From Escherichia phage ukendt, in sequence record NC_052661.1: a DNA stretch of 64,000 nucleotides; one strand, given 5' to 3'. A model generated the notes under the pieces. That model ran no database searches and was not told where the DNA came from. It saw only the letters and a program-made list of their open reading frames with translations. The translations under genes were made by a program, and so were the position numbers. Positions 1 through 12,145 of the stretch are shown here, one piece after another. Positions within the stretch are counted from its first letter, which is position 1, and each line of letters starts with the position of its first letter.

Positions 1-17
1 TTATTTCATAAAACCGC

Positions 18-77
18 TTGCAATACTGCAAAAATAAAGTAAACTATATTCATCAAGGCGGGGAATGGTCCGCCGCC
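18..77 (+). promoter_or_regulatory. sigma70-type promoter (TTGCAA/TAAACT) plus GC-rich hairpin at predicted transcript 5' end
   Basis: -35 at 18-23, -10 at 40-45, inverted repeat GGCGG..CCGCC 57-77, then RBS and ATG at 102. Confidence 0.5.
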
Positions 78-101
78 TAACAAAGAGAAGAGGAAAACAT
101 C

Positions 102-275
102 ATGATCACTTTCGCTACCCGTGAAGCCGCTCGCAACGTTGCACGTAAAGTTAACGCCGCCAACCTGGGCGCTACACTTAAAGCCCCGGTGAAAGATGAA
201 TCAGGCAAATGGATCTTCCCTGGTCTGCGTCATGCTGACAAGTTAGGTACTTTAAGCCTTAAAAATAATCGTTGA
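102..275 (+). CDS. hypothetical small protein (57 aa, MITFATREAARN...)
   Basis: ATG after RBS gaagaggaaaac; N-terminus MITFA shared with next ORF; below ORF-track size cutoff. Confidence 0.5.
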   Translation: MITFATREAARNVARKVNAANLGATLKAPVKDESGKWIFPGLRHADKLGTLSLKNNR

Positions 276-306
276 CTTTTCGTTATAGCGCCTTACAATG
301 GGCGCT
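272..306 (+). promoter_or_regulatory. promoter (TTGACT) with hairpin TAGCGCC-N7-GGCGCTA
   Basis: -35 TTGACT 272-277 overlaps stop of previous ORF; perfect 7-bp inverted repeat 286-306. Confidence 0.45.
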
Positions 307-342
307 ATAGAGAAGAGAAACCACTATTAACAAGGAAACATC

Positions 343-564
343 ATGATTACTTTTGCTATTGTCGCCGTTGTTGCTGGTCAGGTTTACGTAAATGATACAT
401 TCACCACAGAAGACAAGGCAGCAGGAGACATCACCGCCGCTTATAATGAGTGCAAGGCAGTAGAAAGGATGTTAGCGCCTTGTATGCTAATGAGTGAACG
501 CCAGGACGGAATAACAGTATTTACTAACATTGAAACAGGGTACCAAATGGTAGTAACAAAATAA
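343..564 (+). CDS. hypothetical small protein (73 aa)
   Basis: ORF track; RBS aaggaaa; N-terminal MITFA like ORF 102-275. Confidence 0.55.
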   Translation: MITFAIVAVVAGQVYVNDTFTTEDKAAGDITAAYNECKAVERMLAPCMLMSERQDGITVFTNIETGYQMVVTK

Positions 565-567
565 AGC

Positions 568-626
568 TTGACACCGATTTAATTTTTAGTAAACTGTTAC
601 ACGTAGGGCGGGAATAGTTCCCGCTC
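568..626 (+). promoter_or_regulatory. promoter TTGACA-N16-TAAACT plus hairpin GGGCGGG-AATAGTT-CCCGCTC
   Basis: -35 568-573, -10 590-595, hairpin 606-626. Confidence 0.6.
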
Positions 627-643
627 AAAAAGAGAGAAAGACC

Positions 644-997
644 ATGAAAGCACAAAATGCAATTAAAGAGTACATCCTTGCCGCTATCGATTTTAATGAT
701 TACGGTATTACAACCGAAAAAGAGAAGATCGCGGAATTGATGCGCCGTTTTAATTCCGAGTACTGGTACCCTGATAACCAATCACGTTTTAATTATAGTA
801 TTGTTAAAGCACTTGCATCATGGTTACAAGGCTTGCCATCAGATATCAATATCGCTTTCGAATATTGGGAAATTGATCGCCTGTTAACATCCTGGGGATA
901 CATTAAAGAGAATAGCAGCGATGATAAAATCCAACGAGAAAGGGAAAATTATTGGCTTTATATTGCAGGCGTGATCCTTGCTTGCTCTTATGAATGA
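644..997 (+). CDS. hypothetical protein (117 aa)
   Basis: ORF track; RBS agagagaaag 6 nt upstream. Confidence 0.55.
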   Translation: MKAQNAIKEYILAAIDFNDYGITTEKEKIAELMRRFNSEYWYPDNQSRFNYSIVKALASWLQGLPSDINIAFEYWEIDRLLTSWGYIKENSSDDKIQRERENYWLYIAGVILACSYE

Positions 998-1003
998 TAA
1001 ACC

Positions 1004-1056
1004 TTGACAATTTTACAAAACAGTTTAAATTAACAATATAGCGGCAATGGTGCCGC
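1004..1056 (+). promoter_or_regulatory. promoter TTGACA plus hairpin GCGGC-AATGGT-GCCGC
   Basis: -35 1004-1009; hairpin 1041-1056. Confidence 0.55.
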
Positions 1057-1076
1057 TCATATGAAGAGGAAACAAA

Positions 1077-1223
1077 ATGAATACATCTAATCGCGCAGAA
1101 AAAATTCAATCTTCCAAGATCCGCAAGGCCTGGAACGAGGAAGTGATCCGCAAAGGCGACAAGCGCAATAAAACAAAGCGCGGGAAGAGTGACAAATATA
1201 ATTGGATGGATTTAGAGGATTAA
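1077..1223 (+). CDS. hypothetical small basic protein (48 aa)
   Basis: ATG after RBS gaagaggaaac; Lys/Arg-rich; followed by intrinsic terminator. Confidence 0.45.
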   Translation: MNTSNRAEKIQSSKIRKAWNEEVIRKGDKRNKTKRGKSDKYNWMDLED

Positions 1224-1231
1224 CATAACAA

Positions 1232-1257
1232 GGGCGCATCAAGCGCCCTTTCTTTTT
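1232..1257 (+). terminator. rho-independent terminator GGGCGC-loop-GCGCCC-TTTCTTTTT
   Basis: GC stem plus T-tract; same sequence recurs at 5857-5882. Confidence 0.7.
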
Positions 1258-1278
1258 ACATGTAGAGGATAAACAAAA

Positions 1279-1464
1279 ATGATTTTAAACGAGCTTAAAA
1301 CAGCCTACAACGCAACATTAAAAATAGCCGTGCGTTACCGTGATGCGTACGGTTTTATCGCGCAGGGCGTGATCCTGGGCTTTTCTGACGATGGTTTGAT
1401 CTATGTTGATGCACATCACAACAAGGTTAAACCGGAAAACGTTATCAATATAAAATATCTTTAA
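1279..1464 (+). CDS. hypothetical protein (61 aa)
   Basis: ORF track; RBS agaggataaac. Confidence 0.5.
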   Translation: MILNELKTAYNATLKIAVRYRDAYGFIAQGVILGFSDDGLIYVDAHHNKVKPENVINIKYL

Positions 1465-1470
1465 AAGTGG

Positions 1471-1527
1471 TTGACACCATAACCGGACCTGTTAAACTGT
1501 ATTACATCAGGCGGGGAATAGTTCCCC
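1471..1527 (+). promoter_or_regulatory. promoter TTGACA-N16-TAAACT plus hairpin GGGG-AATAGTT-CCCC
   Basis: -35 1471-1476, -10 1493-1498, hairpin 1513-1527. Confidence 0.55.
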
Positions 1528-1550
1528 CACCATACAAAAAGGTAAATATT

Positions 1551-1757
1551 ATGATCACCGCAAAACAAGAAAAAATCATTATCGACGTTGCAGCCGTTGC
1601 CGCTATTGCTATTATTGGATCTTATTATGATACCCGTTTCCCGTCGGCTATGCATGAGATCGCCGCCGTTGCATCAGTCGGCGTGCTGTTTTACGTTGGT
1701 AAACGCTATTTATCACCAATGATTAACAAGCTGACACCGTGGAAAAATAAAGGTTGA
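1551..1757 (+). CDS. hypothetical small membrane protein (68 aa)
   Basis: In-frame ATG after RBS aaaaaggtaaat; track ORF from 1467 would span the promoter; two hydrophobic segments. Confidence 0.5.
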   Translation: MITAKQEKIIIDVAAVAAIAIIGSYYDTRFPSAMHEIAAVASVGVLFYVGKRYLSPMINKLTPWKNKG

Positions 1758-1808
1758 TCCTGTTTTATATTGTGTTATAGTTATCGTGTAGGGCGGCAAT
1801 GGTGCCGC
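1754..1808 (+). promoter_or_regulatory. promoter (TTGATC) plus hairpin GCGGC-AATGGT-GCCGC
   Basis: hairpin 1793-1808 preceded by GTAGG box. Confidence 0.5.
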
Positions 1809-1829
1809 GCCCCCTTTGAGGATGAAATC

Positions 1830-2114
1830 ATGAGTAAAGCTAACACCGTGCTAATGTTTTCCCTGATTAATGATCCCGCTTACTTGTCCAACATGACGCA
1901 GGAGGGTAACACATTAACGGCAACATTCACCAATAAGCTTGACCGAGTGATCATCATCTCACTGAAAACAGTTAGTAAAGGCTTTTACTCGTTAGCTTAT
2001 CATTGGATCACCGATACCGATGAGACAAGCCAGGACTATAGCGCCCCTTTCCCTGAATCAATGGCACGGGAGATCATCGCCGCCGTTGTAAATGATGGTT
2101 TGTTTACTGCATAA
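1830..2114 (+). CDS. hypothetical protein (94 aa)
   Basis: In-frame ATG after RBS tttgaggatgaa, downstream of hairpin; track ORF start 1770 lies inside the promoter. Confidence 0.5.
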   Translation: MSKANTVLMFSLINDPAYLSNMTQEGNTLTATFTNKLDRVIIISLKTVSKGFYSLAYHWITDTDETSQDYSAPFPESMAREIIAAVVNDGLFTA

Positions 2115-2131
2115 ATAATTTAGAAAAAGGC

Positions 2132-2188
2132 TTGCAATCATTTTGAGATAGTGTATATTTAATTCATAGGGCGGCGGGAATAGTTCCC
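2132..2188 (+). promoter_or_regulatory. promoter TTGCAA plus ATAGGGCGGCGGG-AATAGTT-CCC element
   Basis: -35 2132-2137; conserved box 2168-2188. Confidence 0.5.
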
Positions 2189-2211
2189 AAAGCAAACGAG
2201 AGGATTACACG

Positions 2212-2331
2212 ATGAGCAAGTACACAGTAGAATACACGGTAGAAAATCCGGCAGTATCCGAAGGTAAAAAGATGACATTTGCCATCAGTATAATCGCTTT
2301 CGTTGTCACTATCTTATCAATCATCTTATAA
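2212..2331 (+). CDS. hypothetical hydrophobic peptide (39 aa)
   Basis: ATG after RBS gagaggatta; C-terminal hydrophobic stretch. Confidence 0.35.
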   Translation: MSKYTVEYTVENPAVSEGKKMTFAISIIAFVVTILSIIL

Positions 2332-2341
2332 GGTGCACACC

Positions 2342-2503
2342 ATGAAAACAACAGATATTATCAAAGAGATCGCCCTTGCCGCTGGCGTTGAGATCGAGGA
2401 AGTGATCGCGCTCAATCTTACAGAAAACGATCTGCGCAACTATGAAGCGGAAAGCGTGAAAGCAAGCGGTGCGATCCTGGCATATAATCCGGCTAACAAG
2501 TAA
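2342..2503 (+). CDS. hypothetical small protein (53 aa)
   Basis: In-frame ATG after RBS taaggtg; track ORF begins upstream at 2303. Confidence 0.45.
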   Translation: MKTTDIIKEIALAAGVEIEEVIALNLTENDLRNYEAESVKASGAILAYNPANK

Positions 2504-2512
2504 GGGGATAAC

Positions 2513-2623
2513 ATGAATCCGAAAGATATGCAAGCATGGAAAGGGTACGACGATCTGAGCGCCTTGCGTAATAAGTCCAGCCGTAACCTTAGACGATTGC
2601 AAGCAAAGAAAAAGAAAAAATAG
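2513..2623 (+). CDS. hypothetical basic peptide (36 aa)
   Basis: ATG after RBS taaggggataac; Lys-rich C-terminus. Confidence 0.3.
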   Translation: MNPKDMQAWKGYDDLSALRNKSSRNLRRLQAKKKKK

Positions 2624-2624
2624 T

Positions 2625-2680
2625 TTGACAAGTCCGCTTAATCTGATAATATGTATCTTGTAGGGCGGCAATGGTGCCGC
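2625..2680 (+). promoter_or_regulatory. promoter TTGACA-N16-TAATAT plus hairpin GCGGC-AATGGT-GCCGC
   Basis: -35 2625-2630; hairpin 2665-2680. Confidence 0.6.
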
Positions 2681-2701
2681 TCACAAGAAGAGAGAAAAAT
2701 C

Positions 2702-2986
2702 ATGAAAATCACAAAAAGCCTAACTAATTATGCAGCACGTCGCGGATTATGTTTAACCGTTGAAAACTTAGGGAAAGAAGACTTTTTGTGTTTTTGGGAG
2801 CTTGAAAACGATTGCGAGTGGATGTTTTCCTATTCTATCTGCGAAGATCAAAACGGTTGTTTGTTAACCTGGCGCGGTAATATTTATTTACCGGAAGAAA
2901 TTAAAGAGGAATTACCAGGTACGATCATGACAGAGAGACAGCTTAAGGAAATGATTAATTTTGTAGGGCAAAACATTAAAAAATAA
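2702..2986 (+). CDS. hypothetical protein (94 aa)
   Basis: In-frame ATG after RBS agagagaaaaatc. Confidence 0.5.
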   Translation: MKITKSLTNYAARRGLCLTVENLGKEDFLCFWELENDCEWMFSYSICEDQNGCLLTWRGNIYLPEEIKEELPGTIMTERQLKEMINFVGQNIKK

Positions 2987-2987
2987 T

Positions 2988-3049
2988 TTGACAGCACGCA
3001 AACAACGTAGTAAAGTTTACCACATAGGGCGGCGGAATGGTCCACCGCT
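2988..3049 (+). promoter_or_regulatory. promoter TTGACA-N17-TAAAGT plus imperfect GGCGGCGG-AATGGT-CCACCGC hairpin
   Basis: -35 2988-2993; conserved CATAGGGCGG box. Confidence 0.55.
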
Positions 3050-3071
3050 CACAACAGAAGAGAAACAAATC

Positions 3072-3242
3072 ATGATCCCGACTATGTTTTATGTATCGCG
3101 CAAAGGTCACAATATTTTTTGGTCTGAAGATTTAAATGAAGCCATGACGTTTGCCCGTGATCGTGTTGCTATCGGTGGCGTTAACATCACCGTAACCGAT
3201 GAAAATGGCATTGAATACTATAACGGCGACGATGAAGAGTAA
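3072..3242 (+). CDS. hypothetical small protein (56 aa)
   Basis: In-frame ATG after RBS agaagagaaacaaatc. Confidence 0.45.
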   Translation: MIPTMFYVSRKGHNIFWSEDLNEAMTFARDRVAIGGVNITVTDENGIEYYNGDDEE

Positions 3243-3249
3243 TTAATGA

Positions 3250-3267
3250 GGCGGGGAGTACCCCGCC
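3250..3267 (+). promoter_or_regulatory. GC hairpin GGCGGGG-AGTA-CCCCGCC with no recognisable -35/-10
   Basis: perfect 7-bp stem right after stop of previous gene, before RBS of next. Confidence 0.4.
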
Positions 3268-3286
3268 GTCAATAAAGAGGTAAATC

Positions 3287-3556
3287 ATGAAAATATCATT
3301 GGACGTTGCAATCAAGGCCATCGAATCCGGTTACATCCTGGTAAAAGATGATAAGGCTAAAATAGTGCATCATGTTAACAAGGAAACAGGCGAGAGCATG
3401 ATCACATATAAAGCCGCCTACTTTCTCCAATCAGTAGCAGATCCGCGCGTACAACGCCAGGTTACAGCGGCTATTGCTAAAAAATTATGTGCTTTACAGG
3501 GTGCAAGTTTTAACGAGATTGCCCCGTGTTTTGAGTGGTCAAGCTTGAAAAAATAA
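3287..3556 (+). CDS. hypothetical protein (89 aa)
   Basis: ORF track; RBS aaagaggtaaatc. Confidence 0.55.
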   Translation: MKISLDVAIKAIESGYILVKDDKAKIVHHVNKETGESMITYKAAYFLQSVADPRVQRQVTAAIAKKLCALQGASFNEIAPCFEWSSLKK

Positions 3557-3557
3557 T

Positions 3558-3619
3558 TTGACAACAATTATAAATCGGGTAGAATGTATTTCGTAGGGCG
3601 GGGCAATAAGGCAACGCCC
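3558..3619 (+). promoter_or_regulatory. promoter TTGACA-N16-TAGAAT plus GGGCG..CGCCC hairpin
   Basis: -35 3558-3563; GTAGGGCGG box 3594-3619. Confidence 0.55.
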
Positions 3620-3634
3620 ATTAATGAGGGTAGA

Positions 3635-3742
3635 ATGATGTTAGAGAAAATTTTCACGGTTGTAATAGTGGGCCTGGCGTTATCGGTTGGAGTGGTTGCA
3701 ACTATGGCTAACATGATCCTATCTTCCCACGGTATCGGCTAA
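3635..3742 (+). CDS. hypothetical hydrophobic peptide (35 aa)
   Basis: ATG after RBS tgagggtaga; single predicted TM segment. Confidence 0.3.
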   Translation: MMLEKIFTVVIVGLALSVGVVATMANMILSSHGIG

Positions 3743-3752
3743 GGTGAAACAA

Positions 3753-3968
3753 ATGATCACGAATAAGACAGGTAAAACGGAATTTTTACGCGGCTTGCAA
3801 GTTGGTAAACCTGAGATCTGGCATTGTACTAAATCCGCGCATAATGAAATGAAAGATTTTACCGCTACTTTACAACGTGTTAAAATATCTATCACACAGA
3901 AAAAAGCCTTGTTAGTAGTAGAAAACGAGATCCCGCAAACTATTATTATTGTCGAGCGTACAGCATGA
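3753..3968 (+). CDS. hypothetical protein (71 aa)
   Basis: ATG after RBS aaggtga; track start 3744 is an upstream GTG. Confidence 0.45.
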   Translation: MITNKTGKTEFLRGLQVGKPEIWHCTKSAHNEMKDFTATLQRVKISITQKKALLVVENEIPQTIIIVERTA

Positions 3969-4351
3969 AAACAGAAATCATTATTGAAATCATCAACGGT
4001 TATAAAGAAGCCTTTATTTTTGCTGAATCAGCAAGGGATCATGAAGGTAATTTTATTGAAAACTTAGACGATTATGATTTTTCTCCTAGCGCGGACGAAC
4101 GGATCGCCCAGGATGTAACAGCCTTTATTAATGCTAATCTTGCCGCTATCTCTGAGGCAATGAGCGACGGCGCAACAGCCAACCAGATCGGGAATGATTT
4201 ACATTTTACCCGTAACGGTCACGGCGTAGGCTTTTGGGATCGCCCTGAAATATACACCACTAACACGGCGAACCGCCTAACCAATGCAGCTAAGTTTATG
4301 CCGAACGTGTCGGCTTACATTGGTGAAGATAATTTGATTTATATTGAATAA
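3965..4351 (+). CDS. hypothetical protein (128 aa)
   Basis: ORF track; ATGA start/stop overlap with upstream gene. Confidence 0.55.
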   Translation: MKTEIIIEIINGYKEAFIFAESARDHEGNFIENLDDYDFSPSADERIAQDVTAFINANLAAISEAMSDGATANQIGNDLHFTRNGHGVGFWDRPEIYTTNTANRLTNAAKFMPNVSAYIGEDNLIYIE

Positions 4352-4357
4352 AAAGTA

Positions 4358-4414
4358 TTGACACAGATCGCCAGTGTGCTAATATTTACCACGTAGGGCG
4401 GCAATGGTGCCGCC
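4358..4414 (+). promoter_or_regulatory. promoter TTGACA-N17-TAATAT plus hairpin GGCGGC-AATGGT-GCCGCC
   Basis: -35 4358-4363; perfect hairpin 4397-4414. Confidence 0.6.
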
Positions 4415-4432
4415 GATAATGAGGAAAGTAAA

Positions 4433-4732
4433 ATGGAAACTATCGCTATTGTTACCGTAGAAAAACTGGTTGTTGGTGATGTATTCGCGTTAATGGTGCC
4501 TAACAGCAGCAAGCTGGGCGCTTATGAAGTAATGGATCATAAAAATGAATCATTTGGCGACGGTTGCACAATGGCGGTAAAATCTTTAAAGGATGGAATT
4601 ATCCGCCAGGCTAACTGGCACAAAGGGAATCAAGTCGGTTTAATATCAGCTAATTTCTTGCCAGAAGAGCAAACGTTAGACCAACTATCAGGCGGTAAGA
4701 CGTTAGCCGAACTACTGGAAACAGCGATCTAA
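4433..4732 (+). CDS. hypothetical protein (99 aa)
   Basis: ORF track; RBS aatgaggaaagt. Confidence 0.55.
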   Translation: METIAIVTVEKLVVGDVFALMVPNSSKLGAYEVMDHKNESFGDGCTMAVKSLKDGIIRQANWHKGNQVGLISANFLPEEQTLDQLSGGKTLAELLETAI

Positions 4733-4740
4733 TCGACAAG

Positions 4741-4756
4741 GGGCGGCAACGCCCCC
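4741..4756 (+). promoter_or_regulatory. GC hairpin GGGGCG-GCAA-CGCCCC (tetraloop) with no promoter
   Basis: perfect 6-bp stem between two cistrons. Confidence 0.4.
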
Positions 4757-4785
4757 ATTAAACGCAATAGGAAGAGGATAGACAC

Positions 4786-5076
4786 ATGAAAAAGATGATC
4801 GCAGTAGTTGCCCTGGTTGTTGGTATTAACGCGCCTGTAATGGCGAAAGAGTTGCCAGAATCCATCACGTTAACCGATATCAACGCAATAAACCGGATCG
4901 GCGTTAATTATCGCCTATGCCTTGCCGCTAAAACTTTCCAGGACGGCACAACAGAGTACTACGGATTCGAGGGTACCCGCTGCGGTGAGCTTGCACGCGA
5001 CCTTAAGGAAGATCCAGACCTTGAGGCCATACCGATGACCGTAAACGGTAAAGCTTACGTAAACCGCCAACAATGA
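4786..5076 (+). CDS. hypothetical secreted protein (96 aa, N-terminal signal peptide)
   Basis: ORF track; MKKMIAVVALVVGINAPVMA signal-like N-terminus. Confidence 0.55.
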   Translation: MKKMIAVVALVVGINAPVMAKELPESITLTDINAINRIGVNYRLCLAAKTFQDGTTEYYGFEGTRCGELARDLKEDPDLEAIPMTVNGKAYVNRQQ

Positions 5077-5207
5077 GAAAGGTAATCATCACAATGGGGA
5101 TCGTAGTAGCAACGCTGGCGCTTATCCCCTTCATGGTTGAACATGTGCTGATCAGTGTTGTCCTTGTAGTCAGTGACCTATTGGAAACGGTTGGCACCTG
5201 GTTTTAA
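5073..5207 (+). CDS. hypothetical small membrane protein (44 aa)
   Basis: ATGA overlap with upstream stop; hydrophobic. Confidence 0.35.
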   Translation: MRKVIITMGIVVATLALIPFMVEHVLISVVLVVSDLLETVGTWF

Positions 5208-5222
5208 GATAATAAATAGGGC

Positions 5223-5280
5223 TTGCAATAGTCCTATTTTTTGTTATACTTATTGAACGGGCGGCACCTGGGAGCAGGGG
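5223..5280 (+). promoter_or_regulatory. promoter TTGCAA plus degenerate GGGCGGC box, no ORF immediately downstream
   Basis: -35 5223-5228; followed by about 120 nt without an ORF. Confidence 0.35.
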
Positions 5281-5381
5281 AAGATAATCACCGGAAGACC
5301 CCGCTATATATTGATAACTAACGCCTATCAAACAACAAAACATCAAAGGAACAAACTATCAAATCTTTACAATTCTACCTA

Positions 5382-5424
5382 TTGACACCGGATCACGCTT
5401 ACATTATTATTTATCACGTAGGGC
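5382..5424 (+). promoter_or_regulatory. promoter TTGACA with CACGTAGGGC box but no hairpin
   Basis: -35 5382-5387; box 5415-5424. Confidence 0.5.
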
Positions 5425-5456
5425 AAATCATTTTAAACGGTAAACGAGGAATCACC

Positions 5457-5840
5457 ATGAGCAATATCATCAACCTGGCAGCGACTGTAAACGGTAAAGA
5501 CTTTAACGGCGCTGTAGACCGTGATCCTATGTGGTGCTTGTCAGTGTTTAAAGGTGACTTGGTTGAAGTTAGAACAACCGAAGGGTATAGCGATGATTAT
5601 AAATGCGAGATCCATTTACATAACTGGTACACGGGTAAAACTTATGCGCTGAATCATGCGTTTATCGGCAAGGTTGAATATAGAGAAATGATCGACGATG
5701 AAACGGGGCAGGATTTTAGCGAAAACGTTTATATTCGTTCCGAGACATTAGCCGAACGTTTGATCGAGAAAATGAAAGCAAAAAATAAAATTAATTTATC
5801 TCATTGGATTGATATAACAAACGATCCAGCTTATCAGTAA
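5457..5840 (+). CDS. hypothetical protein (127 aa)
   Basis: In-frame ATG after RBS aacgaggaatcacc; track ORF from 5382 would span the promoter. Confidence 0.55.
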   Translation: MSNIINLAATVNGKDFNGAVDRDPMWCLSVFKGDLVEVRTTEGYSDDYKCEIHLHNWYTGKTYALNHAFIGKVEYREMIDDETGQDFSENVYIRSETLAERLIEKMKAKNKINLSHWIDITNDPAYQ

Positions 5841-5856
5841 ATAACATTTCATACCA

Positions 5857-5882
5857 GGGCGCACAAAGCGCCCTTTCTTTTT
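5857..5882 (+). terminator. rho-independent terminator, same sequence as 1232-1257
   Basis: GGGCGC-ACAAA-GCGCCC plus TTTCTTTTT. Confidence 0.7.
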
Positions 5883-5889
5883 GCCCGAA

Positions 5890-7370
5890 CAATGTTGATA
5901 GCTTTCGCCTATGAAAAACCGACACAGAACAAAACTGAATAAATCACGGTATCAAGCTAATCGACCATTAAACGAATAACCATACATCCCAGGGCAACAG
6001 GCTGTTAGAGAGCTATTTAGAGCGGTTAAAATCGATCAACAACCAACAACAAACCATCAAAAACACCCTTTTACCTCCTTTCTAGTGCAATGATAACCAT
6101 TATCATCTACCCATGATTATCTATGCAATATAAGCGCATAATTATAATGTTGATAATAGTTCGCAACAACTAACCAACAAACAACATAAAACAATAAGCA
6201 AACTAATCATAATCAAAGGAATAATAGCAAGATGATTGATAACGACAAACAATCAAACCATGATGAATACTAAGCAAAACAACGATAACACGACAAAACA
6301 ACCAACTAACGAACAATAACAAACGAAACCATTAAAATAACAACTATTAGCAAAATAGTGCCTAAATGAAATCATTACAAAACGAATCATTCACAGGATC
6401 ATCATTAGCACGCTATGCCGGACACATAGCGAGCTAATAATAAGCCAACTACACCCCAACAATCATAACCATCGGTGACGGTTATTTCTTGTTACTGCGT
6501 AGCTTGCAATAATTGCAAGCGTAATGACGCTTACACTTATTGCGCTGGCTTATTATTAGCATTATATGTAATTACCAAGATCATAACATTAGCGCAATAA
6601 CAATAATCATTGTGGTAATTACAAGATGAAATCATTAGCAAGATGAATAATTGCACGTAGCAACATGAGCGAATAGCGACAGGTTGCATAGTGTGCACAT
6701 AGTGTATAAACATACAAGAAAATAAAGGCTAATCTTTTGGGGGCGAATACTATCGCGTAGCGATATGTTGAGCACCTTCTCTTAAACGTAAATAAAATCA
6801 GAAAATTCTTGATTTATTTTAGTTTTTATGTTAATAAACGTTTAAATAATAATCATTCTCATATAAATAATAGTCTGCTTGTCATGAGCGGGATTAGTTG
6901 ACAATGTTCCGTCATATGATGAAGTTGCCAAACCATTGATAAATAAGTGTTTGTGTGATTTATAATCAAGTGGCCCACCTTGTCGCTATGTTGGCATGAG
7001 CCTTGCATAAGTCATTGAATACGAATGATAATTATTCTCATTCGCATGATATTTGGGAATTGTCGCTGCGTGGACCTGACGGCCCGAAAATTCGCGTTAA
7101 GCACTTCTTACGTATGCGCCATGATTTTTGCCATATGATATTGATTCTATTAGATATTCTTGCCATGAAACAAGGTGTGTCGAAATAATCTCTCCCCGTA
7201 GATATTTTGGGTTACTTTTTATACAAGAGTGGGGTGTCAAAAATAATCGGTATATATGGGATAATTGATAGGAATCCCCTATGGTAATTCGATTGTAATT
7301 CCTTAAGATTGATCGTATGATGTTGGTGATTGATGATTGCCATGAAAGATGGCTAACGATGAGAGGAGAT
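5890..7370. other. 1.5-kb ORF-free region: A+C-skewed tract (about 5930-6430), 19-bp palindrome GCTTGCAATAATTGCAAGC (6503-6521), ATCATTAGCA-like direct repeats
   Basis: no ORF with RBS; strong strand compositional asymmetry; palindromes and repeats read directly. Confidence 0.5.
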
Positions 7371-7374
7371 TGTC

Positions 7375-7749
7375 ATGCAAGAGAGTAAAAATATTCCGTT
7401 GAGTAGTGCAACATTGCTTCGCTTCTATAAAGCATGGATTGCCAACTATCCTGCAATGAATCGCACAACGAGTGGCTTATGTGGTTGTCTGGTAGATTAT
7501 GTAGATGATTTTGTTGGTGAGACAACTAGAGAAGAAGATAGAAGATGGCGTGATCATTTGTTGGACCGTTTGAAATATGAAATGAGGAAACAATTTACAT
7601 GTGCAGGGCTGGACTACAATCTTCCGTTCAATGCAGATTGCATGGATTACCTTTCAGAGTGTATAAACTTGGCGTGTCATACCAACACGTTACGTCTTCA
7701 ATGGGTGAAAGATCGGATTGAAGATGCAAATAATGCTTGCATTGAATAA
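7375..7749 (+). CDS. hypothetical protein, member 1 of WVKDR paralog family
   Basis: ORF track; RBS gagaggag; shares FY..W...GLC....PF....WVKDRI pattern with 11626, 14846, 18145, 19450. Confidence 0.6.
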   Translation: MQESKNIPLSSATLLRFYKAWIANYPAMNRTTSGLCGCLVDYVDDFVGETTREEDRRWRDHLLDRLKYEMRKQFTCAGLDYNLPFNADCMDYLSECINLACHTNTLRLQWVKDRIEDANNACIE

Positions 7750-7798
7750 AGATGTTTGTATAATGGATGACATAACAGATAGCCAATGAGGAGATGAA

Positions 7799-8008
7799 AT
7801 GAAGAATTTGAAAACTGTCACAATGTTCTTGACTGATCCTACACGTGTGCAAGCACTGGCTAAAGCCAGCCGTGTAGCTGTAGAATTCCAAAACTTTAAG
7901 CCGTCCGTTGTGACAGGCAGTGAAACGTGTGTTATCGATTTCATTAACGAATACTTCCGAGGGAATCCGGTTGGTCGTTACTTTATTAAGGGTCTGAAGG
8001 ATGCATAA
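7799..8008 (+). CDS. hypothetical protein (69 aa)
   Basis: ORF track; RBS gaggagatgaa. Confidence 0.5.
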   Translation: MKNLKTVTMFLTDPTRVQALAKASRVAVEFQNFKPSVVTGSETCVIDFINEYFRGNPVGRYFIKGLKDA

Positions 8009-8231
8009 CATGAAACGCATGAAAATTCGTATTGAGAATGGTGGTGGTTATAAAGGATTGGCACATGCAAAATTTCCACTTGTGTTGGAAGCTACAGTGG
8101 AATACAGTGGGCTTGCTCATGTGCGATTCTCGAAGATGATGGAAGTGCAGGAATGGTTTTGGGACGAGATAGATGCACGAGAAGGAGAAGATTATGTTTT
8201 CTTTCCTCACGAATATAACATTGTCTATTAA
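8001..8231 (+). CDS. hypothetical protein (76 aa), DYVFF-motif pair with 12336
   Basis: ORF track; MKIRI...WF.E...EG.DYVFF shared with 12336-12557. Confidence 0.5.
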   Translation: MHNMKRMKIRIENGGGYKGLAHAKFPLVLEATVEYSGLAHVRFSKMMEVQEWFWDEIDAREGEDYVFFPHEYNIVY

Positions 8232-8234
8232 AGG

Positions 8235-8483
8235 TTGTGTGCAATGATCACACCACAACAGAATGAAGCAGCAATGGATCTTCTTGATAGTTTGTATTTC
8301 GATAATTGGTACTCTGAATGTGAATGGATGAATGTGCAAACTCTGAAAGAGAAGACAGAAGCGTTGATTACCGTAGATCAATTTCTTGCAGAGACGGAAA
8401 GAATGAATTATGATATGGCATCTCGCGCACGACGCGTTTCCATTTTCAATAAAATGTTAGCATTATGGGGAGGTAGAAAATGA
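8235..8483 (+). CDS. hypothetical protein (82 aa)
   Basis: ORF track. Confidence 0.5.
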   Translation: MCAMITPQQNEAAMDLLDSLYFDNWYSECEWMNVQTLKEKTEALITVDQFLAETERMNYDMASRARRVSIFNKMLALWGGRK

Positions 8484-8941
8484 GACAATTCACTATACTG
8501 GCAGCTTATGTGCAATGTGTTCACGACTATGTTAGTGCTCATACAGGTGTGCTGGAAGTTACCAGTAAAATTGAAGGTAATATGGGTACTGTCTGTGTGC
8601 AACATACTTTATCCAATGTGCCGTTTAAAGTGTTCACTGTTGTAGCTGCCGATTACAATCGTGTAGATGTGCGTTTCTTGGATCATAATTTTCGTAACGC
8701 ACTAGATAATATCGAAGATTATCTTCCCGTGAAACCTTTGTCATTTCCACCGAGTCGTGCAAATAATGTAGTGACAAACCTTAATGAAAGGAATGTGGCT
8801 ATGCACAAAAAAGTTCGTCAATTGAAAATGCTGATGGAAATGCAAGAAGAGATTGAAAAAGAACTGAAAGAAGATTTCGGTATGCTTCCAAAAGACGCTT
8901 TGAAATGGTATGATGAACTAGGAGGAGAAAGTTATGAATAA
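8480..8941 (+). CDS. hypothetical protein (153 aa)
   Basis: ORF track; RBS ggaggtagaaa; ATGA overlap. Confidence 0.55.
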   Translation: MRQFTILAAYVQCVHDYVSAHTGVLEVTSKIEGNMGTVCVQHTLSNVPFKVFTVVAADYNRVDVRFLDHNFRNALDNIEDYLPVKPLSFPPSRANNVVTNLNERNVAMHKKVRQLKMLMEMQEEIEKELKEDFGMLPKDALKWYDELGGESYE

Positions 8942-9128
8942 AGGAACTACTGTATATTTAGTGACTAAGAACACCCCAGGTTGGAATCAGTGCACAACAA
9001 CTCCATATAAAGTCTGTGCAACACTGGAATTAGCACAACGTGCAGAAGCAGAAGTTGATGCTATGCAATACAGCTACGGTGAAATCATTCCTTTTACTCT
9101 TGAACAAGAAGGAGCACATCATGTTTAA
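8934..9128 (+). CDS. hypothetical protein (64 aa)
   Basis: ORF track; RBS ggaggagaaagtt. Confidence 0.5.
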   Translation: MNKGTTVYLVTKNTPGWNQCTTTPYKVCATLELAQRAEAEVDAMQYSYGEIIPFTLEQEGAHHV

Positions 9129-9906
9129 AGTAGGTTTTGTTTATAATTTCAAATCGGAAGATACCAAAAAGAATTTTGGTAAAGCCAGTATTCGTAACGC
9201 TTTCTTTGTAGGTTGCATTCAAGATAGTAAGTTTAAAGTTTTAGATGTTGATTTTCTAGGTTCTGTGTCAAAGGTGAAGGTATTAGACACAAATAAGATC
9301 ATCGAAGGTAGTTCTGGGCTTTTTCCTGAAGGCTATAAGCTTGTAAGTTGTATAGATTATAGTCGTTTTGAAGAACATCCTCCTGAAGATTATGAGGATT
9401 CTCCTACAGGAGGTTGTGTCTTTGTAGAAGGTGGTGTCTATAAGTTTGCAAGTGAACAAGATCGTAAGCTTTTCGCCAATTATATTGACGGCGGACAAAC
9501 GACAAACAATGTAAACCGAAAAATTTCCGATCTTATTGGCGATGATCCTTTCGTGATCACAAAGATGGTTGGACAAGATGTAACAGCAATCCGTAGGCTT
9601 GTATGTAATACAAATCATGTAGCAGGTGAAGGTTGGTTCAAGGAAGCTTGTGCGCTGCTAATCAAAAGTGATAACCCTTATTTTAAAAATATTAAAGATG
9701 TTGTTGAGCCTAAACAAGAGGAACCCGCAGCGAATTTTAAACACTATGCTATTGTTAAAGGTATGAATGTCCAACTGGTGTCACATTCTTACGAAGAGAT
9801 CGCCACAGAAGCAAAAAAGATGAAGGAAGAATACCCAATTTCTACTGTTGAGATCTATGAGCGTATTGGTGTTGTTAGTATTGAGCCTACTGCGGTAATA
9901 AAATAA
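9121..9906 (+). CDS. hypothetical protein (261 aa), N-terminus MFKV paralogous to 9916
   Basis: In-frame ATG after RBS aaggagcacatc; track start 9040 overlaps upstream gene. Confidence 0.55.
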   Translation: MFKVGFVYNFKSEDTKKNFGKASIRNAFFVGCIQDSKFKVLDVDFLGSVSKVKVLDTNKIIEGSSGLFPEGYKLVSCIDYSRFEEHPPEDYEDSPTGGCVFVEGGVYKFASEQDRKLFANYIDGGQTTNNVNRKISDLIGDDPFVITKMVGQDVTAIRRLVCNTNHVAGEGWFKEACALLIKSDNPYFKNIKDVVEPKQEEPAANFKHYAIVKGMNVQLVSHSYEEIATEAKKMKEEYPISTVEIYERIGVVSIEPTAVIK

Positions 9907-9915
9907 GGAGCTATT

Positions 9916-10353
9916 ATGTTCAAAGTTAATGCTGTTTACTGTTTCAAAAGCAAAGCTGCATGTGAAGCTTTCTCTATGATCTCTGATGAAAATTTCAAAA
10001 TGGCAGCTTTGATTGAAGGGTCTTGTTTCCGCGTCGAAGATGTTAGTGAATCAGGGTCTGTTTGCTCATTGACTTTATTGGACAGCGGAGATATTATTGA
10101 AGCTGGACAGTATCCGTTCAGAAGTTGGGAGATATTGTTAGCTCGCGGAGAGCGTAACTTTTTTATGTGCGTGTCTGCGGGGGAAGTTGTGAAAGAAACT
10201 AAGGATGTTTCTGTTTACAATTCTGAATTTATAAGTTATAGTGAGTATCAACATCTGGAAGGCATTGTTGGTCACTTGTTATCTCTGATTGACATTGAAT
10301 GTGACTTGCCTGAATCATTGAAAGAAGAGTTGAAAGCATTAGATCTGCTGTAA
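9916..10353 (+). CDS. hypothetical protein (145 aa), MFKV-type N-terminus
   Basis: ORF track; RBS aataaggagctatt. Confidence 0.55.
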   Translation: MFKVNAVYCFKSKAACEAFSMISDENFKMAALIEGSCFRVEDVSESGSVCSLTLLDSGDIIEAGQYPFRSWEILLARGERNFFMCVSAGEVVKETKDVSVYNSEFISYSEYQHLEGIVGHLLSLIDIECDLPESLKEELKALDLL

Positions 10354-10380
10354 TGTTCCGCACAACGAAAGGAGAATAAA

Positions 10381-10680
10381 ATGAATCTGACCGAACAGTT
10401 ACGCCGTATTGCAAAAGAAGCTTCCTTCAACTTCCCTGTTGAAGAAGTGATCGAGACATGTTTTGCTGAAGCACGAGCGGGAAACTCTTCAAGAAATTTC
10501 ACGCCATCTGATTTTGGTCTGGATAATTCCCCTACCCACCCAGGGGAGATCTACAATCAGGTGAAGTGGATGGATGAAGCAGTAGCAATTCTTCGTGAGC
10601 GTGGGCTTATTGTTTATAAAGAAATGGATCTGAACGGGGCATACGAGTGGATCACTATTGATTGGTCGGAGGTGAAATAA
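10381..10680 (+). CDS. hypothetical protein (99 aa)
   Basis: ORF track; RBS aaaggagaataaa. Confidence 0.55.
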   Translation: MNLTEQLRRIAKEASFNFPVEEVIETCFAEARAGNSSRNFTPSDFGLDNSPTHPGEIYNQVKWMDEAVAILRERGLIVYKEMDLNGAYEWITIDWSEVK

Positions 10681-10889
10681 TGGTTACTATCACATTGACA
10701 GTTACACAAGAGCAAGCAGAAGAATTACGTGATGCAGTGGCATACATGGGACGCTCTTATTATATGCCTTATAAATCACAAGATGTTTTTGCTACAGCCA
10801 TTGAGAAAGCTTTAAACAAATATCGAGAAACTCATGCCGTTCCTAAAGTATCAGCAGAAGAGTTTGGCACTTGGCACGAAGTTAACTAA
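10680..10889 (+). CDS. hypothetical protein (69 aa)
   Basis: In-frame ATG after RBS ggaggtgaaata; 1-nt overlap with upstream stop. Confidence 0.5.
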   Translation: MVTITLTVTQEQAEELRDAVAYMGRSYYMPYKSQDVFATAIEKALNKYRETHAVPKVSAEEFGTWHEVN

Positions 10890-10899
10890 GGAGGTATCG

Positions 10900-11133
10900 A
10901 TGAAAGGTAACAAGATGAAAGTTAATCAGGTACCGAGTGCATACACTTTGTGGCTTGCGCGAGCGTTACACCAGACGATCAAAAATCCTAAGAAGCCAAT
11001 GAAGAGTGGGAAGAAGTTTATGTCTAAGGGCAAAACAACCTTTGGCTTCACTCGTATGTCTGTTAAGATGGAAAGGCTGGGGTACAAGCCAAACTACGCT
11101 CGTTACCCTTCCGAATACAACTGGTTTGACTAA
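10900..11133 (+). CDS. hypothetical basic protein (77 aa)
   Basis: In-frame ATG after RBS taaggaggtatcg. Confidence 0.5.
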   Translation: MKGNKMKVNQVPSAYTLWLARALHQTIKNPKKPMKSGKKFMSKGKTTFGFTRMSVKMERLGYKPNYARYPSEYNWFD

Positions 11134-11148
11134 AGAGGAGAACAAAAC

Positions 11149-11433: not shown

Positions 11434-11448
11434 AACAGGAGAAAGATT

Positions 11449-11625
11449 ATGGCTACTTTTCAACAACTCAAAGATGTTTCACGTTTAGTAAGAAAAATCC
11501 GAGAAGCAGACGCTGCTGTGCGGAATGCATTAACGCCAGCAGAGCGTGAAGATCTTGAAGAGGAGGTGAAAACAGCCGAGAATGCTTTTGCTGCGTATCT
11601 TTCAACACTGTACACAGGAGGTTAA
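11449..11625 (+). CDS. hypothetical protein (58 aa)
   Basis: ATG after RBS aacaggagaaagatt; fills gap between track ORFs. Confidence 0.45.
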   Translation: MATFQQLKDVSRLVRKIREADAAVRNALTPAEREDLEEEVKTAENAFAAYLSTLYTGG

Positions 11626-12131: not shown

Positions 12132-12145
12132 CCTTGAGGTGCAAA

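Follow-up and report, generated by a model that had tools for sequence, protein, structure and literature searches.

The 1.5-kb ORF-free tract near the start of the DNA analysed here (the window, 64,000 nucleotides of Escherichia phage ukendt, NC_052661.1) is very probably the concatemer-junction, or terminal, region of a linear genome with short direct terminal repeats (DTRs), as judged by homology to relatives with resolved ends. The window comes from a Phapecoctavirus, a phAPEC8-like myovirus of E. coli of ~150 kb, and its record is permuted relative to the physical genome, so that the physical ends would fall within the tract. Across the junction, the right-end genes (1-5840) and their terminator are followed by ~900 bp of non-coding DNA, the 329-bp repeat, a leader and the gene starting at 7375 (Table 1). 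The initial annotation had seen no credible ORF in this tract, and indeed the largest one within 5841-7374 has only 61 aa; the gap is likewise without annotation in the curated phAPEC8, AV125, Paula, muut, ZCKP1, phiWec179 and KP13-26 genomes. Its proposal of a packaging or terminus region agrees with the mapping of the predicted physical ends and DTR within the tract, at 6771-7099. The edge of the gene module had also been read as a repeat boundary, which does not hold, since the repeat sits downstream of the A+C-rich tract and not at its edge.

Table 1. Features of the predicted genome junction and its flanks (positions in the window; a bar within a word marks the cut).
Feature	Position	Strand	Remarks
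Right-terminal array, ~19 small genes	1..5840	+	transcription toward genome end; ORFs, promoters, codon usage
Hairpin word GGGCGGCAATGGTGCCG, four copies	1039, 1791, 2663, 4396 (1039..4412)	+	each just 3' of a promoter
Intrinsic terminator closing the array	5856..5884	+	hairpin and T-run kept across genera
A+C-rich, G-poor, low-GC, unstructured stretch	5900..6400	+	A+C 0.675, GC 0.34, C/G 1.9
Fur-box-like site A, AATGATAACCATTATCAT	6086..6110	.	15/19 to GATAATGATAATCATTATC; 14-16/19 in 9 genomes
Fur-box-like site B	6137..6160	.	13/19 in window; aligned: 16/19 Justusliebigvirus, 15/19 KP13-26
Conserved structured element, ~150 nt	6411..6560	.	fold backed by covariation
Structured element, first hairpin	6411-6431		
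Structured element, 15-bp long-range stem	6433-6447/6546-6560		encloses inner hairpin and palindrome
Inverted repeat, 18-bp arms	6567..6623	.	Phapecoctavirus-specific
Left DTR boundary word GTTG|AGCAC	6767..6775	+	predicted cut 6770/6771
DTR homologue, 329 bp	6771..7099	+	homology to end-resolved relatives
Fur-box-like site C, inside DTR	6842..6860	.	14/19 in window
Fur-box-like site D, inside DTR	7021..7045	.	14-15/19 in window; 17/19 phiWec179
Right-boundary site	7044..7127	+	last 56 nt of DTR, cut, 25-28 nt beyond
Right DTR boundary word GTTA|AGCAC	7096..7104	+	predicted cut 7099/7100, +/-1 nt
Left-end leader	7100..7374	+	predicted promoter-like sites 7160-7189, 7293-7321
Conserved word GGTGTGTCRAAAATAAT, two copies in left-end leader	7174-7189, 7231-7247		
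First left-end gene	7375..7749	+	

We infer the DTR of the window phage from end-resolved relatives (Schickermooser, UAB_1 and BME3) that are 91-96% identical to it in this region; the permuted or collapsed state of the record accounts for the single copy of the element in the window. The Schickermooser record carries an exact 329-bp DTR, the first base of which aligns with 6771 and the last with 7099, while UAB_1 has an annotated 343-bp DTR at the same place and with the same boundary word. The ends of the BME3 record, obtained with PhageTerm, match exactly on the left and within 1 nt on the right, with the boundary word at the record end (the repeat feature annotated by the BME3 authors is 73 nt off their own record ends). 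Moreover, the record end of Mt1B1_P17 corresponds to 7098, one IMG/VR contig stops at the DTR start, and several further records begin or end at 6770/6771 or 7098/7099. Homology thereby places the virion ends at GTTG|AGC (6770/6771) and GTTA|AGC (7099/7100). The word GTTR|AGC is present at both DTR boundaries in 10/10 genomes from several lineages (Phapecoctavirus, phiWec179-type, Justusliebigvirus and KP13-26), TGTTG|AGC and CGCGTTA|AGCA being spaced 329-344 bp apart in all ten, and GTTRAGCAC occurs only twice in the 64 kb, at the two DTR boundaries. Short DTRs have been published for Schickermooser (328 bp; PMC6563267), BME3 (342 bp; PMC12210895) and UAB_1 (PMC11350853), with further literature support for termini in PMC12695924.

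The right boundary is also found outside phages. Copies of approximately 80 bp across the right cut site are present in satellite-like islands of 242 of the 5,426 E. coli genomes. These previously undescribed islands are chromosomal and ~12.5 kb long, are inserted at tRNA genes and have att repeats; no terminase is annotated in them, and they encode a gpE-type capsid protein, a tape-measure-like protein, a Dit-like tail protein and a small serine recombinase, a gene set that to our knowledge fits none of the P4-like, PICI, cf-PICI and PLE satellites. The island copy corresponds exactly to 7044-7127 and to nothing else of the tract, and is all the phage DNA that the islands have taken over. As it is the right cut site that the islands have copied, this segment is a likely packaging signal, and likely serves for both recognition and cleavage by the terminase.

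Four palindromes resembling Fur boxes keep their positions between genomes, and two of the four lie within the DTR. If they were bound by host Fur, or by a phage protein of like specificity, the ends would constitute an iron-responsive regulatory region, in which Fur-Fe would control the earliest transcription from the incoming end or Fur would be titrated by the many replicated copies; this reading, which can be compatible with a packaging role, we regard as possible but rather doubtful. Matches of at least 13/19 to the E. coli consensus GATAATGATAATCATTATC, confirmed in the literature (e.g., PMC4506495), number 8 in the tract versus 0.87 expected (at most 5 in 1000 composition-preserving shuffles), and 7 of the 12 window matches of at least 14/19 fall in 2.3% of the sequence; in the window itself, however, the matches are moderate (14-15/19) and lie in AT-rich DNA. 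Across 9 genomes the sites stay in place while the flanks diverge, with matches of 16-17/19 in Justusliebigvirus and phiWec179. Site A is followed by a conserved inverted repeat (TATGC...GCATA, 6122-6140), the match of site C, at +73 relative to the start of the DTR, rises to 17/19 in UAB_1, Nernie and muut, and site D forms an overlapping hexamer array in Justusliebigvirus. The Fur-type hexamers AATCAT, AATGAT and ATAATC are also among the most over-represented 6-mers of the tract, but no convincing conserved promoter overlaps any of the sites. The island copy begins right after site D, which is therefore dispensable for whatever the island borrows. Like E. coli Fur boxes, the sites have palindromic sequences and form overlapping arrays of hexamers (14-15/19 in the window, 16-17/19 in relatives), although they are predicted at the genome ends of a virulent phage and not at an iron-uptake promoter. 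No report of Fur boxes in a virulent coliphage came to our notice, and the sole phage example with a Fur box that we found is the lambdoid sit operon (PMC6969025).

The 19-bp palindrome GCTTGCAATAATTGCAAGC, which lies at 6503-6521 exactly as claimed initially, is kept in 15/15 aligned relatives, bar one or two central bases. The folding z-scores of 6390-6630 are -6.7 on the + strand and -8.7 on the - strand, and RNAalifold gives 46 pairs, 11/46 of them with compensatory changes, among which one pair varies between U-A and C-G with a U-G intermediate. In the structured element 98.5% of the cells are paired and covariation is 0.155 vs 0.056; the observed covariation was reached by 0/500 shuffles, and slid controls gave at most 3 pairs. 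Such compensatory changes and very strong z-scores would also fit a tract that encodes a non-coding RNA, with 6411-6560 as a folded RNA domain and the A/C stretch, rut-like in its C/G of 1.9 without structure across 500 nt, loading Rho or sponging an Hfq-like protein. We consider this unlikely. A-C mismatches (G-U on the other strand) are as frequent as G-U, so that neither strand is favoured (unpaired cells number ~10 on one strand reading and 11 on the opposite), and the covariation is equally compatible with RNA and with DNA. An Rfam search at E<=1 returned nothing except one chance microRNA hit, there is no conserved upstream promoter on either strand, a strong terminator directly precedes the tract, and the sister genera are without the A+C skew. 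The idea that the A+C tract is an (A-R-N)n-like Hfq sponge gains no support either, since ARN runs are at background (2 observed vs 1.6 expected from base composition).

The A+C skew as such was correctly noticed (0.675 in 5930-6430): the 500-nt windows starting at 5900-5950 have the top A+C of the 64 kb (mean 0.506, sd 0.035, i.e. ~+5 sd). The CAA/ACA repeats, by contrast, form no tandem array, TRF detecting just one 2.7-copy 11-mer. The stretch has an RNA folding z of -0.68 and contains two conserved islands (5885-5965 and 6086-6160). Its skew is lineage-specific, with A+C of 0.70-0.73 in Phapecoctavirus and phiWec179 only, whereas Justusliebigvirus and KP13-26 are very AT-rich at the equivalent place (GC 0.20-0.25), and 6206-6400 cannot be aligned between genera. 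The phiWec179 stretch is 93-97% identical to the window, which exceeds what a mere spacer would predict; the adjoining phiWec179 genes are also 89-92% identical, and this identity can therefore be explained if the entire right end was exchanged recently.

The direct repeats ATCATTAGCA are present at 6401 and 6631 as initially annotated, and belong to a family of ATTAGC/GCTAAT words that ranks first among the 6-mers of the tract in an unbiased test (8 copies vs 0.9 expected) and is expanded in KP13-26. Their enrichment, a GC minimum of 0.20-0.30 at the same position in all lineages and the selection on hairpin-cluster pairing would suit a replication origin as well, with the AT-rich DNA as unwinding element, ATTAGC as iteron and the hairpins as single-strand priming signals. 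We hold this to be improbable: the tract contains 0 DnaA boxes, an iteron-binding initiator is only hypothetical, cumulative GC skew merely tracks gene orientation, and every one of these features suits a packaging site equally well. The ATTAGC words lie 40-800 bp away from the cut and are absent from the island copy, so that they may not be part of the core signal.

Since both repeat boundaries sit at 6771-7099, the genes at 1-5840 represent a right-terminal array and not a long repeat. Most of them have their own predicted sigma-70-type promoter, including nine near-consensus + strand promoters with TTGACA/TTGACT -35 boxes (272, 568, 1004, 1471, 2625, 2988, 3558, 4358 and 5382). Ten of the larger ORFs match PHROG families of unknown function, and the last one (5382-5840) is T4 gp30.8-like (PF06019). 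The word GGGCGGCAATGGTGCCG (4 matches vs 0.05 expected) is probably an mRNA stem-loop at the 5' terminus, its copies being called 'PHIRE promoters' in the phAPEC8 annotation, and the terminator closing the array is also annotated in phAPEC8, Schickermooser and Paula. The contrast between the first and the next gene array, previously judged by eye, is borne out by computation: GC is 0.419 in 1-5880 vs 0.386 in 7375-24000, GC3 is 0.449 (19 ORFs) vs 0.336 (45 ORFs; Mann-Whitney p=1.2e-6) and C3 is 0.246 vs 0.147 (p=2e-8), with no difference in GC1 or GC2, the contrast being confined to synonymous sites. As the 62 minus-strand genes have a GC3 of 0.312, it is the first array that is the outlier. 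The 'enteric-like' codon choice is confirmed by the RSCU correlation with 11 E. coli core genes (r=0.45 vs r=0.03 for the next array; bootstrap 95% CI of the difference 0.24-0.53).

This GC3 outlier might suggest that the first 5.9 kb were horizontally acquired, the tract being a decayed scar or an ordinary edge spacer. Mosaicism is indeed seen, as the last gene has two unrelated alleles, of which the window allele is 93-100% identical to that of Justusliebigvirus, and the right end of phiWec179 is 89-97% identical vs ~76% at the left end. However, the whole subfamily shares the array and the tract in the same order, so that any acquisition would be ancient, and the tract is no scar, given its covarying structure and the conservation of its cut sites and palindromes. 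Host-like codons and consensus host promoters also fit selection on early genes; even though the two are indistinguishable here, we judge acquisition to be very unlikely as the account of the tract. A T5-like long terminal repeat or first-injected segment over 1-5900, with the tract as injection stop, has a next to negligible probability: beyond a superficial likeness (small early genes, then a repeat-rich non-coding region) the genome itself is not T5-like, the repeat measures just 329-344 bp in every end-resolved relative, which refutes the arrangement for these, and self-comparison gave no second copy, nothing from 1-7370 recurring within the window and the GGGCGGCAATGGTGCCG cassettes being the only internal repeats found there.

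Under the preferred reading as a concatemer junction, replicating concatemers would hold one repeat copy per junction, and a single phage nuclease, the terminase, would read the word shared by both boundaries, with most of its recognition signal in the ~80 bp that span the right boundary. Cutting would take place there, and DNA synthesis would duplicate the repeat, by analogy with T7-type phages. The hairpins with covarying pairs, which cluster 210-360 bp ahead of the repeat, may act as folded single-stranded DNA for priming or processing; alternatively, together with the ATTAGC words, they could be a docking site for the terminase small subunit. From its composition, the A+C low-GC stretch may be a weakly constrained, easily melted and unstructured spacer, which might also block read-through transcription over the junction. 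The compositional contrast probably arises because the right-end block consists of individually promoted small genes driven by the host RNA polymerase, with host-like synonymous codons there and AT-ending codons elsewhere in the genome.

The short DTRs of Stephanstirmvirinae are already known and are the same element (91-96% identity within the genus, boundaries within 1 nt, same length class), and the terminal architecture seen here is ordinary for phAPEC8-like phages, the island-borne copy of the cut site excepted. This architecture is not published: in the literature on these DTRs we came across no account of the shared GTTR|AGC word, of the structured element upstream, of the A+C stretch or of the Fur-like palindromes, and the available text of PMC6563267, PMC12210895 and PMC11350853 says just that a repeat is present or how long it is. 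The related myovirus rV5 (Vequintavirinae, 138 kb), then assumed to be circularly permuted, has a similar gene-free 'non-coding' box on its map (PMC3606486), but its DNA cannot be aligned with the window. The resemblance to T7/T3 lies in an exact DTR that is short and bounded by fixed sequences, in non-coding DNA with many repeats and inverted repeats adjoining it at the right end, and in a DNA hairpin with a presumed part in duplicating the repeat. The T7/T3 concatemer junction contains a 160-230-bp terminal repeat and pac sequences and passes through a hairpin intermediate, and its processing in T7 involves pausing of T7 RNA polymerase. The two differ in that there is no sequence similarity and that the phage here is a myovirus of 150 kb for which no phage RNA polymerase is known; moreover, we know of no description of one word common to both boundaries in T7. 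According to PMC4281155, which cites Chung and Hinkle (1990), T7 infection gives rise to a DNA hairpin that includes the terminal repeat, and repeat-duplication models rest on it. A T7-like mechanism for the window phage would be an analogy. In P1 pac (TGATCA/G hexamers) and lambda cosB (R sites), words are clustered around the cleavage site; the eight ATTAGC words likewise represent a short word in many copies and both orientations near a cut, but differ in their 40-800 bp distance and in being missing from the island copy. Finally, the E. coli islands are similar to PICI, P4 and PICMI satellites in their tRNA-gene integration, the lack of an annotated terminase and the phage cut-site copy that they carry, and differ from them in that their presumed helper is a virulent 150-kb myovirus.

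The initial annotation had taken the tract lacking open reading frames (ORFs) at 5841-7374 for a possible terminus region, and this part of its reading is borne out by relatives whose physical ends map inside the tract. Across this region the window shares 92-98% identity with phAPEC8-like phages, which are myoviruses of ~150 kb (Phapecoctavirus, Stephanstirmvirinae); a T5-like genome, our own early guess, was ruled out by BLAST. Stephanstirmvirinae genomes were recently reported to end in direct terminal repeats (DTRs) (PMC12695924). For Schickermooser a terminal repeat of 328 bp has been reported (Korf et al., PMC6563267), and its record carries an exact 329-bp repeat at both ends, with the first base corresponding to window position 6771 and the last to 7099; the end of the Mt1B1_P17 record maps to window 7098. 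UAB_1, a Justusliebigvirus with an annotated DTR of 343 bp (PMC11350853), has an exact 343-bp repeat at both record ends, bounded at positions homologous to those of the window. In the case of BME3, where PhageTerm was run by the authors and the DTR given as 342 bp (PMC12210895), the record is deposited reversed; the left boundary coincides exactly with its last base, and the right boundary lies at most 1 nt from its first. The repeat feature annotated in this record (PP239276.1) is 73 nt off the record's own ends; we dropped it as a contradiction, as the record ends themselves agree. Three independent determinations of fixed ends in relatives thus concur within 1 nt, and a 149.5-kb IMG/VR contig also terminates at the DTR start. 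Placed from these ends, the DTR of the window would be the segment 6771-7099, present in one copy. Since the relatives' ends map inside the tract, the window record appears to be permuted and to read across the junction with a single repeat copy.

Among relatives with curated annotation, those examined (phAPEC8, AV125, ZCKP1, phiWec179, Paula, muut and KP13-26) leave a gap of 1.5-2 kb unannotated at the same place; it is filled by small ORFs only in over-calling annotation pipelines, and many public records start or end inside it. Note also that the BME3 record contains Ns (loci L058/L059) and that, ~415 nt inward of the record end, its left-end leader runs directly into the structured element, which looks like a misassembly. 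Several GenBank records (MG065650, MG065639, MG065689 and others; 'Campylobacter phage B15, A150, A110a') match phAPEC8-like or Justusliebigvirus coliphages across the tract at 95% identity, which suggests that their Campylobacter jejuni phage labels reflect mislabelling or contamination.

The left boundary of the repeat reads TGTTG|AGC and the right one CGCGTTA|AGCA in the window, Schickermooser and UAB_1, and this pair is kept on the same strand, at a spacing of 329-344 bp, in 10/10 genomes (Phapecoctavirus, the phiWec179 lineage, Justusliebigvirus and Klebsiella phage KP13-26). The longer word GTTRAGCAC has two occurrences in 64 kb, which are precisely the two boundaries. We infer that a single nuclease recognises the two ends. 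The left-boundary word TTGTTGAGC has additional upstream copies in muut (locus L011, 3392-3416) and in KP13-26 (locus L012, 3595-3731), the latter at 67-69-nt spacing; in KP13-26 TATTAGC words are also expanded between the structured element and the repeat. When IMG/VR was scanned with the right-boundary word, mostly chance 16-mer matches were recovered, together with 3-4 true relatives and scant new diversity.

A match to the right boundary also occurs in E. coli chromosomes. In a comparison with 5,426 complete E. coli genomes, the tract yielded one matching segment, 7044-7127 (83-84% identity, 242 genomes), which spans the cut, with the final 56 nt of the repeat before it and 25-28 nt after it. 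For two strains, the match was placed inside an island of ~12.5 kb flanked by direct repeats of tRNA 3' ends (20 nt of tRNA-Thr around ~13.4 kb including an IS, and 44 nt of tRNA-Leu around 12.6 kb). These islands have the marks of a satellite: a discrete integrative element with integrase and att repeats, an incomplete set of virion genes, with no terminase, portal or tail sheath annotated, tape-measure-like and Dit-like proteins whose homologues are only, or best, in this phage subfamily, and a helper-related signal. The 80-bp cut-site copy is the only DNA common to island and tract, and a search beyond it found nothing further. The islands probably represent a family of satellites, undescribed so far, that exploit virulent phAPEC8/phi92-like phages; the searchable literature gave no description of satellites of this subfamily, which is not proof of their absence. 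The island has the layout of a phage satellite dependent on the packaging enzyme of its helper, without a terminase but with a copy of the phage cut site, which argues that the right-boundary segment is the functional recognition and cleavage site.

Features of the terminal region and of the E. coli islands (coordinates of the window unless a locus is named)
Feature	Coordinates	Remarks
Right-terminal gene block		5.9-kb array of ~19 small genes; larger ORFs all match phage families of unknown function
Last right-end gene	5382-5840	T4 gp30.8-like, PF06019
Intrinsic terminator	5856-5884	Conserved; closes right-end array
A+C-rich, low-GC stretch	5885-6400	Unstructured, fold z=-0.68
Deeply conserved segments of A+C stretch	5885-5965; 6086-6160	Two palindromes and TATGC...GCATA inverted repeat in the latter
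Inverted-repeat cluster	6395-6625	
DTR homologue	6771-7099	
Leader	7100-7374	Weak promoter-like matches; conserved word occurring twice
First left-end gene	start 7375	
Island, E. coli strain cq9	L056 506-13949	Chromosome, NZ_CP031546.1
Island, E. coli strain F5505-C1	L057 13040-25632	Chromosome, NZ_CP024257.1
Island protein		Tyrosine integrase
Island protein		Replication-initiator-like HTH protein
Island protein		Lambda gpE-type capsid protein, without close phage homologue
Island protein		610 aa; its only homologues are tape-measure proteins from this subfamily (132 records)
Island protein		Dit-like; 61% identity with Justusliebigvirus tail-tube initiator
Island protein		Small serine recombinase

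Several other functions could be compatible with a role in packaging. The tract may be a Fur-responsive regulatory region. In an unbiased test of 6-mers, ATTAGC ranked first (8 copies in both orientations vs 0.9 expected), followed by AATCAT, AATGAT and ATAATC, the latter three all within the palindrome AATGATAATCATTCTCAT, which closely resembles the 19-bp E. coli Fur box consensus GATAATGATAATCATTATC as checked in the literature. Fur-box-like matches of at least 13/19 number 8 in the tract vs 0.87 expected (maximum of 5 in 1000 shuffles), and four sites (A, 6086-6110; B, 6137-6160; C, 6842-6860; D, 7021-7045) are held in position in nine genomes, scoring about 14-15/19 in the window and reaching 16-17/19 in Justusliebigvirus and phiWec179. 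Sites C and D lie inside the DTR, and the island copy starts directly after site D. However, no conserved promoter could be placed over any of these sites, nearby promoter-like matches being weak and non-conserved, so that Fur binding is put forward here purely as a hypothesis. We found no report of Fur boxes in virulent phages in the searchable literature, which does not prove that there is none.

Alternatively, the tract may give rise to one or more non-coding RNAs, a reading consistent with the pairing of the structured element (folded at 6411-6560), which is kept by compensatory changes. The segment 6390-6630 folds far better than shuffled sequences (z=-6.7 on the + strand, -8.7 on the - strand), and RNAalifold on 15 sequences from several lineages gave 46 pairs, 11 of them compensatory with both sides changed, including three in the 15-bp long-range stem 6433-6447 / 6546-6560 and, in the hairpin 6411-6431, an exchange of T:A for C:G seen repeatedly in separate lineages. 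When the structure was held fixed, pairing extended to 98.5% of cells, covariation was 0.155 (0.056 when shuffled; 0/500 shuffles reached 0.155), and a partner-sliding control left 0-3 covarying pairs. The perfect 19-bp palindrome reported earlier was located at 6503-6521 and is one invariant hairpin of this element. Strand assignment by wobble pairs was dropped, both strands being equally supported (the U-G pairs of one strand are offset by A-C mismatches, which would be G-U on the other), and the element may therefore act as RNA, single-stranded DNA or a cruciform. Against an RNA product, Rfam gave no credible match at E<=1 (MIR837, E=0.76, 20.9 bits vs a 117-bit gathering threshold), and the Hfq sponge imagined for an (ARN)n tract was not supported, as 2 runs of at least four ARN were counted vs 1.6 expected.

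A replication origin may also reside here, as the low GC (0.28-0.34 in the window, 0.20-0.25 in sister genera) beside the eight ATTAGC copies would suit an origin, but no DnaA box occurs in 5881-7374, all 8 TTWTNCACA matches of the window lying elsewhere. The remaining proposal, that 1-5.9 kb is a T5-like long terminal repeat or first-step-transfer DNA of several kb with pre-early genes, injected first, is refuted by the 329-344-bp repeats of the relatives, which show that 1-5900 is not a terminal repeat, and by self-comparison, in which no part of 1-7370 had a second copy within the 64-kb window.

The listed items of the initial annotation were all present where it had placed them, and above chance, with the exception of a tandem CAA/ACA array, for which TRF found only a 2.7-copy 11-mer. 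The 1.5 kb described as lacking a credible ORF indeed holds nothing longer than 61 aa in 5841-7374, the A+C skew peaks at 5900-6400, which exceeds every other 500-nt segment in the 64 kb (0.68 vs a mean of 0.506, sd 0.035), and the direct repeats ATCATTAGCA were found at 6401 and 6631. CAAC(A/T)AAC-type words stand at 6047, 6175 and 6303 within the A+C stretch, at an exact spacing of 128 nt; no longer periodic unit could be aligned behind this spacing and it does not extend to a repeat family. Between 6206 and 6400 the sequence is not alignable across genera. An A+C skew as high as 0.70-0.73 is attained only by Phapecoctavirus and phiWec179, and the same position in Justusliebigvirus and KP13-26 is instead extremely AT-rich (GC 0.20-0.25). 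The idea of a uniquely conserved A+C tract was weakened by the neighbouring right-end genes, which are also 89-92% identical in phiWec179, so that recent exchange of the entire right end is an alternative. On the other side of the junction, consensus matches for a left-end operon promoter are weak and non-conserved. Relatives have two adjacent paralogous genes at 7375-7749 (phAPEC8 gp245 and gp244; Schickermooser 00001 and 00002); in the window a single ORF begins like the first paralogue and continues as the second, apparently through loss of ~310 nt between repeats of ~21 nt located where each gene starts.

The first, or right-end, array (genes 1-5840) had been described as GC-richer with enteric-like codon choice, and both observations hold: GC is 0.419 in 1-5880 vs 0.386 in 7375-24000, and relative synonymous codon usage, compared with that of 11 E. 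coli core genes, gives r=0.45 for the first array and r=0.03 for the adjacent one (bootstrap 95% CI of the difference 0.24-0.53). The contrast exists only at synonymous sites (GC3 0.449 vs 0.336, p=1.2e-6; C3 0.246 vs 0.147), GC1 and GC2 being indistinguishable between the first and the next array, and the first array is an outlier also against 62 minus-strand genes (GC3 0.312). It contains nine + strand promoters with TTGACA/TTGACT -35 boxes. The hairpin word GGGCGGCAATGGTGCCG occurs four times (1039-1055, 1791-1807, 2663-2679 and 4396-4412), immediately 3' of consensus sigma-70 promoters; its copies are labelled 'PHIRE promoters' (phage promoters) in the phAPEC8 record, but look like stem-loops at mRNA 5' ends rather than promoters. 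These promoter-hairpin cassettes are the sole internal repeats within the array. A terminator hairpin, AAGGGCGC...GCGCCCTT plus T-run, has two copies in the array region (1228-1257 and 5853-5882, 90% identical). Given the consensus host promoters and host-like codons, we infer that the array genes are expressed early by unmodified host machinery; an ancient horizontal origin is a less likely alternative, and the region is visibly mosaic. The last right-end gene exists as two unrelated alleles, one shared by the window, AV125 and ZCKP1 and 93-100% identical to the Justusliebigvirus allele, the other found in phAPEC8, Schickermooser, ETEC-TG and phiWec179, which shows that recombination hot spots adjoin the genome end. 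Ten + strand tRNA genes at 61752-63672 (Met, Arg, Ser, Asn, Thr, Gly, Gln, Pro, Ile, Met) bear on the AT-ending codons of the genome bulk.

We regard as established where the ends lie, as read from the relatives, which word marks the boundaries, that the structured element covaries and that the islands copy the cut site. The rest of the mechanism may be pictured as follows. Concatemers would carry one repeat per junction, terminase would bind the right-boundary segment and cut GTTR|AGC at both boundaries, and DNA synthesis would duplicate the repeat, with the T7 proposal as a model. The hairpin cluster, 210-360 bp upstream of the repeat, could serve the duplication step or dock the small terminase subunit, and the A+C/AT-rich stretch could be a spacer under weak constraint that melts easily and, in addition, shields the junction from read-through transcription. 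A wider joint reading is offered tentatively, and we consider it rather doubtful as a whole: 7044-7127 (~80 bp) would be a portable packaging signal captured by undescribed ~12.5-kb E. coli satellites (~4.5% of complete genomes) for packaging by virulent phAPEC8/phi92-like myoviruses, the islands contributing their own capsid and helper-like tape-measure and tail-initiator homologues, and the phage ends would bear true Fur boxes and a folded, covarying element of DNA, linking the processing of the ends or the earliest transcription to the iron status of the host.

Judged by the searchable literature, what is new comprises the word shared by the two boundaries, the covarying structure, the palindromes resembling Fur boxes, the difference in codon usage and promoters between the genome ends, and the satellite-like islands. 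The tract itself is largely explained and, being a short-DTR end of published type, ordinary in kind; the islands hold most of the remaining interest. Of practical use, true ends can be assigned by sequence alone with the help of the GTTR|AGC pair. Some 130 genomes of this phage group, which is widely used in therapy and biocontrol, are public, most of them with arbitrary start points, and spurious small ORFs across the terminal region (ETEC-TG, Nernie) can be removed. Should the islands prove to be true satellites with virulent phi92/phAPEC8-like phages as helpers, they would add an E. coli helper-satellite system that could affect the outcome of phage therapy, and should Fur bind the Fur-like sites, iron availability would be tied to infection by these phages of the gut and urinary tract.

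The formation of short terminal repeats has been worked out mainly in T7-type podoviruses. The cut-site word, the compensatory structure and the 80 bp copied by the islands provide three testable handles on this process in a large myovirus. In T7, a DNA hairpin containing the terminal repeat was found during infection (PMC4281155), and the tract may work like a T7-type concatemer junction, although without sequence similarity to it. In the rV5 genome paper an unexplained 'non-coding' box was drawn and circular permutation was assumed (PMC3606486); the window element belongs among the published short-DTR ends of Stephanstirmvirinae.
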